Shown here: in pieces, positions 6,304-18,193 of the stretch | How positions within the stretch are numbered: the first letter of the stretch is position 1 | Layout of the letters: each line of letters opens with the position of its first letter | Origin: a virus | Lineage: Duplodnaviria > Caudoviricetes | Strand: one strand, 5' to 3' | DNA: 38,155 nucleotides | Virus record (IMG/VR): IMGVR_UViG_3300042334_000410 | Span: 1 to 38,155 of that record | Notes under the pieces: generated by a model | The model's input: only the letters and a program-made list of their open reading frames with translations | Databases searched by the model: none | What the model was told of the DNA's origin: nothing | Translations under genes and position numbers: made by a program

Positions 6304-6376
6304 TCCGAAATCGCGCCGTCACTAAAAGGCGGCGCGATATAACTATTTGGCGAATAGTTACTGATGAGGACAGCCA
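6304..6376 (+). ncRNA. Hammerhead ribozyme, type II (HH1)
   Basis: UCC-GAAA(6307-10); stem III 6310-20/6328-38; cleavage triplet AUA 6337-39; stem I 6340-47/6353-60; core CUGAUGA 6361-67; stem II GGA 6368-70; loop I UGGC can pair with GCCA 6373-76. Confidence 0.9.
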
Positions 6377-6403
6377 ATCAACTACAAACAAAGGACAGGC
6401 AAA

Positions 6404-6667
6404 ATGGCAATGAGCAAAAAAGACTTCAATCTAATGGCAATTCAATTTGGACAGCAGATGAAGCACATCAACGCAATGGACTATCACCAGCCAATTCGTG
6501 AGATAGCAATGGCAACATTACTTGATTCAATCAAGGCATATTGTTATGTAGCATTTACAGCAAACGGCAATTTTGATTCATCACGTTTTTATGATTTTGT
6601 TGATGAAATCGCAGATGGTCGCCGTGATTCAAGTGGCAAGTTAGTTAAGAAAAGTAAGGCGGCTTAA
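6404..6667 (+). CDS. Hypothetical early protein
   Basis: AAGGACAG RBS motif; 'MSKKDFNLMA...NGNFDSSRF' is a pattern seen in small phage early proteins. Confidence 0.8.
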   Translation: MAMSKKDFNLMAIQFGQQMKHINAMDYHQPIREIAMATLLDSIKAYCYVAFTANGNFDSSRFYDFVDEIADGRRDSSGKLVKKSKAA

Positions 6668-6669
6668 CA

Positions 6670-6810
6670 ATGTATAACGCAGAAGATTTTGACGGCGATT
6701 ATGAAATGGCAATACAAGTAAGCCGCGTAGTAGCGGACAGAACCAAAGGCGAATCAGATTGTTACTGTTCTAATAACACAGTATGCCGTCCGTGTAGCCG
6801 TAATTACTAA
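6670..6810 (+). CDS. Small Cys-rich hypothetical protein (46 aa, not in ORF track)
   Basis: MYNAEDFDGDYEMAIQVSRVVADRTKGESDCYCSNNTVCRPCSRNY; fills the gap; CxC...CxxC. Confidence 0.65.
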   Translation: MYNAEDFDGDYEMAIQVSRVVADRTKGESDCYCSNNTVCRPCSRNY

Positions 6811-6839
6811 ACCAACCAACTAGAAAAGGACAGAAACAA

Positions 6840-7256
6840 ATGGCACTAAATTGGAATATAACAAAATGCAACAATATGGAAGCACTTCAATCAGACACAG
6901 AATGGCCTGTAACTAATGCCGTTATTTGGTCCACTTTGGCTGTAGAGATTGGCGACCTCACAGAAAAAACTGTTAATGAGTTCTACGCAAGAGTTAAATT
7001 GTGGGAAACTGTTAATGGCGCACTTACATATACAAAAGATGGCGCAGATTATTTCATTACGTTAGAAGATTTACGCAAACGTATTGGACTATCAACCAAT
7101 GTAAGCAACTTGCCACGTAACAAATGGCTAAAGCGCATTGAAAGAATCATCGCCGAAAATCAATGGAAAACAACACCGCAATTATCACTCAATGAAATCA
7201 ATGCAATTATCTTCCAAGCACACGTAGAGGCAGAAAAGGAGACAGCAAATGCCTAA
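6840..7256 (+). CDS. Hypothetical early protein
   Basis: AAGGACAG RBS motif; 138-aa ORF. Confidence 0.8.
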   Translation: MALNWNITKCNNMEALQSDTEWPVTNAVIWSTLAVEIGDLTEKTVNEFYARVKLWETVNGALTYTKDGADYFITLEDLRKRIGLSTNVSNLPRNKWLKRIERIIAENQWKTTPQLSLNEINAIIFQAHVEAEKETANA

Positions 7257-7455
7257 GTATCCAAATATCACAGTAACAATGGACTTAGATGGTCCAGATG
7301 GCAACGCGTTCGCAATTATGGGCGCAGTTCAAAAAGCACTACGTAACGCTGGCGCTACTAAAGAAGAACTGGCGCAATACTCAATGGATTCAATGAGTGG
7401 CGATTATGATAACTTAATCGCGGCTCAATCTAAGTGGGTGGCTTTCAATGTCTGA
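7249..7455 (+). CDS. Conserved phage hypothetical protein
   Basis: AAGGAGACAG RBS; 'LDGPDGNAFAIMG...SGDYDNL' is a recurring small phage protein motif. Confidence 0.8.
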   Translation: MPKYPNITVTMDLDGPDGNAFAIMGAVQKALRNAGATKEELAQYSMDSMSGDYDNLIAAQSKWVAFNV

Positions 7456-7588
7456 CACCAAACCAGCACGTAGCGGCACAATTAAGTGTGGTATGTGTGG
7501 CAAATCTGTTGTAATCGGGAAGTGGATAAAGTTGGCTTTTTGTCCTGATTCCAAATGCACTAATAGTGAAGAACGTTATTTGGACTAA
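7448..7588 (+). CDS. Small Zn-ribbon protein (46 aa, not in ORF track)
   Basis: MSDTKPARSGTIKCGMCGKSVVIGKWIKLAFCPDSKCTNSEERYLD; CxxC...CxxxxC; overlaps the upstream stop. Confidence 0.65.
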   Translation: MSDTKPARSGTIKCGMCGKSVVIGKWIKLAFCPDSKCTNSEERYLD

Positions 7589-7677
7589 GCCGAAACGTGC
7601 CAAATGTGTGCAATTGTTTAAGCAACGCACATATTTGGCACGTCTAGTGGTAAATGCCACTACTGACGAGGCTCGTC
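7583..7677 (+). ncRNA. Hammerhead ribozyme, type II (HH2)
   Basis: AGCC-GAAA(7592-95); 17-bp stem III 7595-7611/7627-43; GUC 7642-44; stem I UAGUGG 7645-50/CCACUA 7657-62; core CUGACGA 7663-69; stem II GGCU 7670-73, extendable by GAC 7583-85/GUC 7675-77. Confidence 0.92.
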
Positions 7678-7704
7678 AATGTAAACCAAACAAAGGACAG
7701 AAAA

Positions 7705-8205
7705 ATGACAGAAGCAACAACAACCGAATCAACACCAACAATGCAAGCAACTATGGAACGATTTGTAATGGATAACGATTTGGCAACCGTTATTGAAAGG
7801 CTGGTCAAGCAAGAAGAACGTTTTATTGAACTGGCGCAAGCAAAAGATTCAATCTATACACGCCTTCAAGATGAACGCGCCACAAGCCGTATCAATCGTG
7901 ACACAGTTCGCAACAAGTTCCGTGAAATGTTAGATGGCGATAAAAACGCCACTATTGAAATGGACTTGAGCGACATTAATGAATTACTAGAAGATATTGG
8001 CGCAAGCAGAATTATCTTTACTTATTCTGTTGATGTAACAGTTACAGCCACAATTACCGGAATTGAGGCAGATAGTGAGGAAGATGCACGTGAAAAGGCA
8101 ATTCAAGCACTAGAACTCCGCGTAGATACAGATTCACTTGGCGAGGACGCCAATTGTGAAGATGAAGAATATGACGCCGACAATGCACAGGAAGAGGACA
8201 ACTAA
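7705..8205 (+). CDS. Hypothetical acidic protein
   Basis: Start reassigned to ATG 7705 behind AAAGGACAG; 'IEADSEEDAREKA' motif. Confidence 0.8.
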   Translation: MTEATTTESTPTMQATMERFVMDNDLATVIERLVKQEERFIELAQAKDSIYTRLQDERATSRINRDTVRNKFREMLDGDKNATIEMDLSDINELLEDIGASRIIFTYSVDVTVTATITGIEADSEEDAREKAIQALELRVDTDSLGEDANCEDEEYDADNAQEEDN

Positions 8206-8206
8206 T

Positions 8207-8482
8207 ATGGAACAGGAAACAAATTCATATATCGCTATTCAACCAAATAGCCACTATCACGACGCCGCCTATAACGCAGGACTATGCAAATCAAGCCAGT
8301 ATTTGGTGATTGATTTCTTTTCTTGGGTTAAGTGGTACAACGACGCAAGATTTCAACGCAAGCCATTAGTGCCTACGCCAACATTTAGCGCAGACACTTA
8401 TGAAATTGCCTTGAAAGTAAGAGATGAACTAAACCAAGCCGCAGATAGCGTTTTGGAAACGACAGCAAAGGACAGTAAGTAA
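8207..8482 (+). CDS. Hypothetical protein
   Basis: ATG 8207 behind GAGGAC, directly after the previous stop. Confidence 0.7.
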   Translation: MEQETNSYIAIQPNSHYHDAAYNAGLCKSSQYLVIDFFSWVKWYNDARFQRKPLVPTPTFSADTYEIALKVRDELNQAADSVLETTAKDSK

Positions 8483-8483
8483 T

Positions 8484-9497
8484 ATGGCGCACAATCTAGA
8501 GCAGTTTGAAGATGGCACAACGGCGTTCTTCACAGCACGTGAAGTAGCGTGGCACAAACTAGGCACAGTTACAGATGGCGCACTTAACGCAGAAACAGCG
8601 TTACAGACCGCGCAACTGGATTGGACTGTATTTAAATCGGAAGAGCCAGTTACAACAATGGTTCCAATGTATGGCGATTCGGCTATGGAAGAAGGGTCAA
8701 TGGAAGAAGTTACGCACAAAGACCGCTTTATGACCTATCGCTATCACCCAAAAACAAAGCAAGCGGACGCACTTGGCGTGGTCGGCAATCGTTACACGCC
8801 TGTCCAAAATTCGGACGCGTTCTCGTTTCTTAATTATGTGTCAGATGAATCAGGCGCAGTTTTTGAAACGGCTGGCTCTATTGATAATGGGCGCAAAGTC
8901 TTTATGACAATGAAATTGCCAGATGGACTTAATATCGGCGGCATTGACGCTATTGATATGTATTTAATGGCGTGGAATACGCACGATGGGTCGTCCTCAT
9001 TTAGTGTGGCAGTTACGCCTATTCGTGTTGTATGTCAGAACACTTTAACGGCGGCTTTAAAAGCGGCTAAGAGTAAGTTCTCCGTACGCCACACCGCCTC
9101 ATCTAACGGCAAGATTCAAGCGGCACGTGAGGCACTTGGCATTACGTTTAAGTATGCCGAGGAATTTGAACGTGAGGCAGAATCGCTACTAAGCCAATCA
9201 ATGACGGACAAAGAGTTCGCCAAAATGGTTGAGATGGCTATTCCGCTTAATGACCCTGAATCACCACGTGCCGTCACAATGGCAGAACAAGCACGTGGAA
9301 CGTTGATGGCACTATGGAAAGCGCCAACACAACTCAATGTGGCTAATACAAAGTGGGCGGCATATAACACGTTCGCAGAGTATTCAGATTGGGCTAAGCC
9401 AGTTCGCTCTAAAGATGGCGAAGTGGCACGTGCCGAACGTATCGTGAATGGAAGTGGCGATAGGTTCAAAAACAAGATGTTGGCACTACTTAACTAA
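8484..9497 (+). CDS. DUF932 (TIGR03299 phage/plasmid-like) protein
   Basis: 'AWHKLGT', 'LGVVGNRYTPVQN', 'ETAGSI..GRKVF', 'NTHDGS', 'TPIRVVCQNTL', 'RHT', 'TKWAAYNTFAEY' motifs. Confidence 0.92.
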   Translation: MAHNLEQFEDGTTAFFTAREVAWHKLGTVTDGALNAETALQTAQLDWTVFKSEEPVTTMVPMYGDSAMEEGSMEEVTHKDRFMTYRYHPKTKQADALGVVGNRYTPVQNSDAFSFLNYVSDESGAVFETAGSIDNGRKVFMTMKLPDGLNIGGIDAIDMYLMAWNTHDGSSSFSVAVTPIRVVCQNTLTAALKAAKSKFSVRHTASSNGKIQAAREALGITFKYAEEFEREAESLLSQSMTDKEFAKMVEMAIPLNDPESPRAVTMAEQARGTLMALWKAPTQLNVANTKWAAYNTFAEYSDWAKPVRSKDGEVARAERIVNGSGDRFKNKMLALLN

Positions 9498-17059: not shown

Positions 17060-18193
17060 ATGGGTAAAGTAATCCGCCTAGAAAGTGCAATCACGCGGAC
17101 GCCACGTGTAATGCAACTTGAAGGCTTGTTTGATATGGATTCAGAGGCACGTTCCATTACAAATATTGAAATGAATATTCCTGATTTAAGCACACGTGAT
17201 TGGAATATCGGTCTTATTGTTGGACCATCAGGCGCTGGCAAAACAACCGTTGCCAACGATTTGTTTCCTGACAAAATGCGAAGCACAGAAAATATGAAGT
17301 GGTCTAAAGATAAGGCAATCATTGATGATTTTCCGCAAGATTTGCCTATGCGCGAAGTTACCGAATTGTTATCATCTGTCGGCTTTAGTTCGCCGCCTGC
17401 GTGGTTGCGCCCATTTCACGCACTAAGTAACGGCGAGCAGTTTCGTGTAACGATTGCACGTGTGCTGGCAGAAAATCAGGACTTGTCTGTTGTAGATGAA
17501 TTCACGTCCGTTATTGACCGCACAGTTGCACAAATCGGCTCATATGCAATTGCCAATACTGTTAGAAAACGCAATCAGAAGTTTGTTGCTGTTGGCTGCC
17601 ACTATGACATACAAGAGTGGTTACAGCCCGATTGGATTTACGAGCCACATACTGGCACCTTTACTTGGGGGTCGGTTCAACCCCGACCACAAGTTAAAAT
17701 TGAAATCATATGGGCAAAGTATGAATCGTGGAACACGTTCGCACGTCATCACTATCTAGACACAAAACTAAACAAAACGGCGCACATCTACGTTGGGTTA
17801 ATTAACGACCAGCCAGCGTGCATAAGCGCGATTTTGCCGTTGCCAAATGCTCACGTGCGTAACGCTCGGCGGTTTAGCCGTAACGTTGTGCTTCCTGACT
17901 TTCAAGGCATTGGATTAGGCAAATACTTTCACGAACGTATTGCGGCTGGACTTATTGCACAGGGCTTGGCTGTCTATGCAACTGCCAGCCACCCAACGCA
18001 GATACATCATCTCAACAAATCGCCAAACTGGGAACTTATTCGTATGCCGTCAAGAGTAGCCAAACAAGGCAAAACAAGTTCACTATCGTCACGAATGGGC
18101 GTCAGCAGAGCGCGCCTAACAAGTTCCTTTCGCTTTAGGGGAGAACCTGATTACGAAGTTGCGAAGATATTAGCGCCACTTCCTAAGAAATAA
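17060..18193 (+). CDS. ABC-type ATPase fused to GNAT (Mom-like) acetyltransferase; putative DNA-modification enzyme
   Basis: Walker A GPSGAGKTT, signature LSNGEQFR, Walker B VVDEFTS, H-loop VGCHYD; GNAT 'FARHHYL', 'SRNVVLPDFQGIGLG'. Confidence 0.88.
   Translation: MGKVIRLESAITRTPRVMQLEGLFDMDSEARSITNIEMNIPDLSTRDWNIGLIVGPSGAGKTTVANDLFPDKMRSTENMKWSKDKAIIDDFPQDLPMREVTELLSSVGFSSPPAWLRPFHALSNGEQFRVTIARVLAENQDLSVVDEFTSVIDRTVAQIGSYAIANTVRKRNQKFVAVGCHYDIQEWLQPDWIYEPHTGTFTWGSVQPRPQVKIEIIWAKYESWNTFARHHYLDTKLNKTAHIYVGLINDQPACISAILPLPNAHVRNARRFSRNVVLPDFQGIGLGKYFHERIAAGLIAQGLAVYATASHPTQIHHLNKSPNWELIRMPSRVAKQGKTSSLSSRMGVSRARLTSSFRFRGEPDYEVAKILAPLPKK

Follow-up and report, generated by a model that had tools for sequence, protein, structure and literature searches.

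A self-cleaving RNA motif of a known kind in a tailed phage, a type II hammerhead here called HH2, appears from its sequence to carry a selected addition that we did not find described in print: a 3′ tail complementary to its own catalytic core. Knowledge of this kind of hammerhead, and of its setting between the genes of phages, dates back to 2011 (PMC3088659, in its accessible parts). On comparison with relatives, the tail is not a chance complementarity and is evidently under selection, and the two folds that it allows are predicted to be of similar energy.

The window, that is, the whole stretch of 38,155 bases that was analysed, has an estimated completeness of 99%, and its PHROG matches (terminase, portal, tail, endolysin, RecT-like and SSB proteins) identify it as a tailed dsDNA phage. 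Lysis genes are followed by a non-coding gap, a run of small uncharacterised genes (6404-8482), a DUF932 gene (8484-9497) and recombination/replication genes; the part from the small genes onwards probably forms an early operon, and a promoter and terminator scan scored at chance level or below. Searching cultured phages for HH2 gave no match, the terminase relatives were all below 60% identity with no close cultured relative among them, and none of the 49 pattern matches in GTDB genomes (one tail register tried) was a full hammerhead. Elsewhere in the window, between the ParB-like and terminase genes, a 377-aa gene (17060-18193) combines an ABC-type ATPase domain with a weak acetyltransferase match.

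Each HH2 element listed in an earlier note on this DNA was read at its claimed position, including the GUC at 7642-44, the UCGUCA at 7673-78 and the ATG at 7705 (Table 1). The sequence was compared with the type II definition in the available methods text of PMC3088659: the core C3 U4 G5 A6 N7 G8 A9 corresponds to CUGACGA 7663-69, and G12 A13 A14 A15, U16 and H17 correspond to GAAA 7592-95, U7643 and C7644. The core-flanking pairs 10.1-11.1 (G7670-C7591), 1.1-2.1 (U7645-A7662) and 15.1-16.1 (A7595-U7643) are intact, stem III consists of 17 contiguous pairs with A15.1-U16.1 and one G-U among them, and the topology is that of type II, with loops closing stems I and III and stem II open. The UAA stop codon had been placed in the 5′ strand of stem II, which holds for A7588, whereas U7586 and A7587 fall in an internal loop; A7587 is presumably the partner of U7651 in loop I, to judge from a known loop motif. 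A pairing of loop I with upstream bases 7577-82, visible by eye, seems unlikely, as loop I has changed in L001, the closest relative, and the upstream bases have not changed to match. Loop I also contains an in-frame AUG (7654-7656) that would lengthen the downstream ORF by 17 codons; it is probably incidental because it is absent in L001.

Table 1. Coordinates of HH2, its flanking genes and the companion motif HH1 in the window
Feature	Position	Strand	Remark
Upstream 46-aa gene	7448..7588	+	Cys-rich; ends GAC-UAA within the 5′ edge of the ribozyme
GAC last sense codon	7583..7585	+	Predicted to form the 5′ strand of stem IIb, opposite GUC 7675-77, when the fold is cleavage-competent
UAA stop	7586..7588	+	A7588 paired in stem II; U7586/A7587 in internal loop
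Stem II 5′ strand AGCC and conserved GAAA	7588..7595	+	AGCC-GAAA read directly
Stem III hairpin, 17 bp	7595..7643	+	7595-7611 with 7627-7643; 3′-terminal hairpin of the predicted upstream product
GUC triplet	7642..7644	+	Cleavage predicted on the 3′ side of C7644
Stem I hairpin, 6 bp	7645..7662	+	UAGUGG 7645-50 / CCACUA 7657-62, loop UAAAUG
Catalytic core CUGACGA	7663..7669	+	N7 = C7667
Stem II 3′ strand GGCU	7670..7673	+	GGC = loop of the anti-core hairpin
Anti-core tail UCGUCA	7673..7678	+	Pairs with core 7664-69 (OFF/product) or, via GUC 7675-77, with 7583-85 (ON)
Ribosome-binding-site-like 9-mer AAAGGACAG	7692..7700	+	Occurs 8 times in the window against an expectation of 0.3
Downstream 166-aa gene, no assigned function	7705..8205	+	Leader of 60 nt between cut and ATG 7705
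HH1, companion type II hammerhead	6304..6377	+	AUA triplet, predicted cut after 6339; internal comparison

A type II descriptor applied to both strands of the window gave two matches, HH1 (GAAA at 6307) and HH2 (GAAA at 7592), and matched none of 100 shuffles generated by an order-3 Markov model; with a type I/III descriptor the window gave no match. The folding z-score of 7583-7677 was −7.7. HH1 contains the loop I/3′ tail pseudoknot described in PMC3088659 (loop I pairing with at least four bases of the tail), which HH2 lacks, its best such pairing being two pairs. The covariance-model search that the earlier note had proposed did not recover HH2: there was no Rfam hammerhead match at the gathering score (RF02276) or at E values up to 10, the output being miRNA-like hairpin noise with no ribozyme match, and HH1 was missed as well; the long stem III and the absent pseudoknot may account for the missing RF02276 match. 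With the compensatory changes in relatives described below, these structural features support the identification of HH2 as a hammerhead: positions 7588-7673 form a genuine-looking, complete type II motif with a predicted cut after C7644, in which case stem I would be the 5′-terminal hairpin of the downstream product.

To place HH2 among its relatives, we gathered loci by their DUF932 protein (80 of 322 kept) and by the downstream protein (19), with pattern scans, three of which covered 17, 25 and 7 of 64 parts, adding more; the hammerhead set is a sample, and all counts refer to the matches listed. From 558 sequences a descriptor retained at least 314 distinct hammerheads, forming at least 237 clusters at 78% similarity, and all 314 were also recovered by searches that specified no tail past stem II. 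Among the relatives two hammerhead classes occupy two positions, the first hammerhead having a loop I/tail pseudoknot and the later ones following a stop codon and bearing an anti-core tail. HH1, with its UGGC (loop I) and GCCA (tail) pseudoknot, is conserved in relatives in first place among the hammerheads of the small-gene block, and a ACUAAAAG-like loop recurs there on stem III. Both sides had changed in all six pairs of stem I among 21 distinct clade relatives, counts that kinship of the rows inflates. The core, the GAAA and the cleavage-site UC are invariant while the stems covary, as expected under selection for catalysis. The length of stem III is free to vary among relatives: it is 47 nt in the window (7596-7642) and in the more distant L002 (L002:5137-5183) and L003, and 14 nt in the closest relative (L001:5135-5148), a pattern that suggests module exchange or deletion.

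HH2 had been described as no recent duplication of HH1, which stands for the window itself; in L002-L004, by comparison, the hammerheads share the same stem I arms, and their sequences may reflect shared ancestry or exchange. The identical arms occur in both hammerheads of each phage (L002:4003 and L002:5133; L003:3396 and L003:5121), hinting at homogenisation or common origin. Seven further loci (L172, L177, L182, L223, L240, L324 and L507) carry hammerhead-pattern matches or motifs in groups of three or four spanning 1-2 kb, and such contigs would be useful for comparing tailed and untailed forms inside one genome.

The competing hairpin of UCGUCA with UGACGA, noticed earlier in a single sequence, turned out to be both conserved and covarying in relatives. 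Pairing of at least six bases between core and tail was present in 48 of the 237 cluster representatives among the matches listed, against an expectation of 9.2 when the tail was shuffled with its stem II strand left intact and 8 of 234 in a distal control segment; outside the clade of the window the count was 32 of 202 clusters. We then compared core position N7 with its tail partner in cases picked by CUGA and G8 pairing alone, with N7 unused. The combinations were C-G in 16 clusters, U-A in 23, U-G in 3 and unpaired in 6 (N7 being C in two and U in four of the last), and the table of C/U by G/A departed strongly from independence (Fisher's test P=6 × 10−9); outside the clade the corresponding numbers were 12, 11, 3 and 5. 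In a tree built from 37 DUF932 rows (the window and L001-L037 without L008), the C-G state requires two changes across the 5-95% range of 200 bootstrap trees, and the starred branches by themselves force no more than one C-G origin. In 21 distinct clade sequences the anti-core helix was 91% paired, and its free column had changed on both sides in five rows; this is one of seven pairs with changes on both sides, and the covariation comes from one column because one core position alone can vary. Tail variants that retain G-U pairs (UCGG in 4 clusters, UUAG in 6 and UUGG in 2), a core-to-tail spacing of 3-17 nt and mismatched tail forms, each in 1-5 clusters, were also found, and the G-U forms together with the variable loops and spacing indicate RNA pairing rather than a DNA operator. 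Anti-core tails and pseudoknots tended to exclude each other, a tendency that was not significant (7/48 versus 50/195, P=0.13). A core-covering tail that appears to be selected in about one-fifth of the sampled type II clusters implies that fast constitutive cutting would not be the whole story.

Absent from the first description is a further 3-bp helix beyond stem II (stem IIb), in which the tail is predicted to pair alternatively with the last sense codon (GAC 7583-85 with GUC 7675-77), thereby extending stem II. In the window, the calculated energies are −39.8 kcal/mol for stem II alone, −42.9 kcal/mol with stem IIb (ON) and −42.1 kcal/mol for the anti-core hairpin (OFF), so that stem IIb adds 3.1 kcal/mol to the ON fold, and the two states differ by less than 1 kcal/mol across a barrier of approximately 10 kcal/mol. 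Two mutually exclusive folds of similar energy, as a switch requires, are thus found in silico. The minimum-energy fold of 7583-7677 contains stem IIb, and the next bases or longer flanks shift it to the anti-core hairpin. Balance to within 2 kcal/mol was seen in 24 of the 48 anti-core clusters, and the OFF fold was preferred by more than 2 kcal/mol in 22. With natural flanks, ViennaRNA gave a stem II probability of 0.005 or less, which, read literally, would mean almost no cutting; the program penalised HH1 and the pseudoknot class equally (median 2.8 versus 2.4 kcal/mol), and because it treats neither tertiary contacts nor Mg2+ its relative values alone count. The 3′ product folds into two hairpins, stem I and core-tail, at −14.3 kcal/mol, the remainder being open. 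A hairpin at 7579-7594 also appears in the predicted folds as an upstream competitor structure.

The reading that we tentatively favour, and to which we give somewhat less than an even chance, is that HH2 is a processing site whose tail acts as a brake before the cut and as a lock and cap after it. HH2 would cut a polycistronic small-gene message after C7644. Before the cut, the RNA would move between the ON fold (stem II with stem IIb) and the OFF fold (core-tail hairpin), and the similar energies of the two predict slow or partial cutting. After it, the OFF hairpin, now unopposed, would open the 4-bp stem II and prevent re-ligation, although a 4-bp stem II would come apart fast after cleavage anyway and a lock may be unneeded. 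The upstream mRNA would terminate in the 17-bp stem III, and the downstream mRNA would begin with a 5′-OH end and two hairpins, beyond which an A-rich stretch free of structure would extend to the ribosome-binding site. Hammerhead cleavage leaves a 2′,3′-cyclic phosphate upstream and a 5′-OH downstream (PMC6155905, as far as accessible), and clustered hammerheads process polycistronic phage RNA at other loci, according to the available text of PMC3088659. In the brake-and-cap reading, a stop-bound ribosome would open stem II as a side effect of tight gene packing. The complete association with stop codons inside the clade described below (16/16 versus 4/14) fits a translation-gated switch better.

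The upstream 46-aa ORF is a real gene. Its orthologues, taken from loci gathered by other searches (L001-L003, L020, L021 and L023), show synonymous bias, with 10 synonymous and 2 non-synonymous codon changes relative to L001; the protein had no PHROG or Pfam match. A ribosome positioned at a stop codon covers approximately 12-15 nt downstream, a footprint that here spans the 5′ strand of stem II and the GAAA and makes some physical coupling likely. We counted stop codons near the motif in clusters with at least 250 nt upstream, using the longest upstream ORF and excluding five-pair cases without a pseudoknot. A stop 4-10 nt before the GAAA was present in 34 of 46 anti-core clusters relative to 22 of 48 pseudoknot clusters and 55 of 114 others (P=0.007 and 0.005, respectively). 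Inside the clade the comparison was 16/16 versus 4/14, a contrast confounded by position because the comparison group consists mostly of hammerheads that come first in the operon; outside it, 22/30 versus 79/143 was not significant (P=0.10). About half of type II phage hammerheads adjoin stops, so adjacency alone reflects gene packing, and the AAG fixed before stem II in our search patterns biases that position towards UAA/UGA. The ribozyme itself may need those A's before stem II, which would make UAA a cheap overlap. The earlier suggestion that terminating ribosomes modulate cleavage therefore keeps a plausible geometry and an enrichment of stops, and loses force from the non-significant outside-clade comparison and from the many hammerheads that share the arrangement.

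The main rival is a selected translation-gated switch, which we consider possible but not probable and which would work as follows: a ribosome at GAC-UAA-GCC-GAAA strips stems II and IIb and resets the RNA to the OFF hairpin. On the direction of the effect we are similarly hesitant: cutting might be largely confined to messages whose upstream gene receives little translation, or might follow directly on the passage of a ribosome that removes competing upstream structure, and a ribosome could also promote cutting by clearing competitors such as the 7579-7594 hairpin; the data fit either direction. In favour of such a switch, the raised stop adjacency of anti-core clusters involves many different upstream genes, and where a stop triplet stands at −6/−7 it terminates a real ORF in 24 of 29 clusters with an anti-core tail and in 26 of 45 others, as against 3/113 and 19/295 for control triplets. 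Furthermore, a GAY codon precedes a UAA at −6 in 9 of 26 anti-core clusters compared with 4 of 55 without a tail (P=0.003), and outside the clade the GAY-stop counts were 5/17 versus 3/51 (P=0.02). Among these nine, the codon third base, N7 and the tail base are matched three ways, as C-C-G in six clusters, U-U-A in two and U-C-G in one; the GAY cases are energetically balanced (median −0.1 versus +3.0 kcal/mol, P=0.014), and the stronger C7-G hairpin occurs in 7 of 9 of them versus 5 of 20. A more specific and equally uncertain proposal is that of a translation-sensing ribozyme, in which codon GAY, core GAY and tail RUC form a three-way toggle and ribosome traffic decides cutting. Against it, GAY is absent in 17 of the 26 anti-core clusters and is lost in L003, the sister of L002; the evidence comprises several tests on one data set with partly related clusters, among which the independent GAY cases may number four or five. 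A general stem IIb was rejected, since over all anti-core clusters tail-upstream pairing of at least four pairs (22/48) barely exceeds shuffles (about 15), and the GAY subset alone stands out.

Rather unlikely, in our estimation, is a tail that serves the product only, with tertiary contacts favouring ON, a fast constitutive cut and a hairpin that acts in the 3′ product. The roles it would then have, protection from nucleases and keeping the ribosome-binding site clear of core and tail in a RiboJ-like manner, carry the same low probability. The 3′ product does fold cleanly into two hairpins, and an SD-like site lies a median of 21 nt past the core (quartiles 18-23), versus 15 nt (9-21) in clusters without tail or pseudoknot. 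Loop I fits U-N(2-5)-Y-N in 27 of 48 anti-core versus 4 of 50 pseudoknot clusters, a motif that suggests an intact tertiary contact. However, an independent hairpin could cap the product without taxing the core (median local penalty +1.8 versus −2.2 kcal/mol), and the GAY compensation would be left unexplained. We regard as improbable a ribozyme that is off by default and freed in trans by a phage protein, antisense RNA, temperature or Mg2+, or that is structural only and does not cut; the OFF probability of 0.97-1.0 with native flanks and the clusters lying OFF by more than 2 kcal/mol speak for it, and the catalytic positions that stay invariant among covarying stems, the variable flanking genes and the lack of any factor found speak against it. 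Very improbable are readings in which the inverted repeat serves as an operator, a palindrome of the DNA, or as an opposite-strand hammerhead core, even though its commonest form reads as a 17-bp dyad, given the variable spacing and retained G-U forms, the break in the window's own repeat at C7663/A7679, the single genome-wide match of the core-plus-GGCTC motif with no stand-alone copy and a search of the window's minus strand that found no hammerhead of type I, II or III.

Type II hammerheads, their pseudoknot and their phage clusters were described by Perreault et al. (2011), who speculated on regulated cleavage (accessible text of PMC3088659). The bacterial and prophage examples there (RF02276) have the same core and topology as HH2, with several hammerheads flanking short gene blocks; a tail that pairs with the core or with the last upstream codon, as in HH2, is mentioned in neither form in that text. 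A word search of the supplements, as available, returned reverse-complement templates only (best 4 of 29), and gapped alignments would escape it. Desulfovibrio vulgaris type II hammerheads have been shown to cleave inside cells, which supports in vivo activity of the class (PMC8782182; Olzog et al. 2021); they resemble HH2 in type and in lying near hypothetical and phage-like genes, and the accessible text reports no regulation or core-pairing tail. Neither a natural core-pairing tail nor ribosome gating was found described in a literature search that had subscription papers mostly outside its scope, and the available parts of PMC13481778, PMC10085705 and bioRxiv 10.64898/2026.10.21.760802 describe neither.

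Ribosome-mediated attenuators, in which a change of fold controls a bacterial mRNA, provide a model for the switch reading. The glmS ribozyme (PMC6765202, in part), whose conditional cleavage controls a bacterial mRNA, would be a second; unlike both, HH2 has no known ligand or leader-peptide sensing signal, and its conditionality is hypothetical. Natural cleavage damped by an alternative structure, as proposed for HH2, is known from the sCYDV-RPV (barley yellow dwarf) satellite RNA, whose hammerhead is attenuated (Miller and Silver 1991, as cited in accessible text of PMC6155905); there the damping is due to a tertiary loop interaction in a plant satellite RNA, whereas HH2 would use a short core hairpin in a DNA-phage mRNA. 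RiboJ insulators combine a hammerhead with an added downstream hairpin and give a standard, stabler 5′ leader (PMC7536230, available text), but they are synthetic, and their hairpin is apart from the core and aids folding, whereas that of HH2 competes with the core. The roles of bacterial hammerheads have been called "largely elusive", with glmS the sole well-understood case (PMC6765202, in the part seen). If the translation-gated reading is true, HH2 would exemplify a ribosome-gated self-cleaving RNA spread over many unrelated phages, and translation sensing would give a function to long-unexplained phage hammerheads. As a construct of approximately 100 nt, HH2 would allow rate damping, product capping and ribosome gating to be separated by a small number of point changes, with HH1 as a built-in control, and it could be used as a small, naturally occurring element with which operon genes are insulated or coupled.

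The ribosome-binding-site-like 9-mer downstream of HH2 recurs exactly before eight small or replication genes (6390, 6825, 7692, 8467, 10106, 11899, 12128 and 15401), with no copy in the structural region, and other clade members have AAAGGGAUA or UUAGGGAAA in its place. Bases 7538-7547, inside the 46-aa ORF, are complementary to the ribosome-binding site at 7692-7701 (approximately −12.8 kcal/mol, P=0.004 by codon shuffle). The window, L001 and L003 show strong anti-SD pairing of this kind (P=0.002-0.004), and in L002 it is weaker (P=0.16); as a general part of the module it was rejected, since over the whole set it occurs in 3 of 41 clusters with an anti-core tail and in 7 of 136 others. Where present, it could silence gene 7705 on the uncut, untranslated message.
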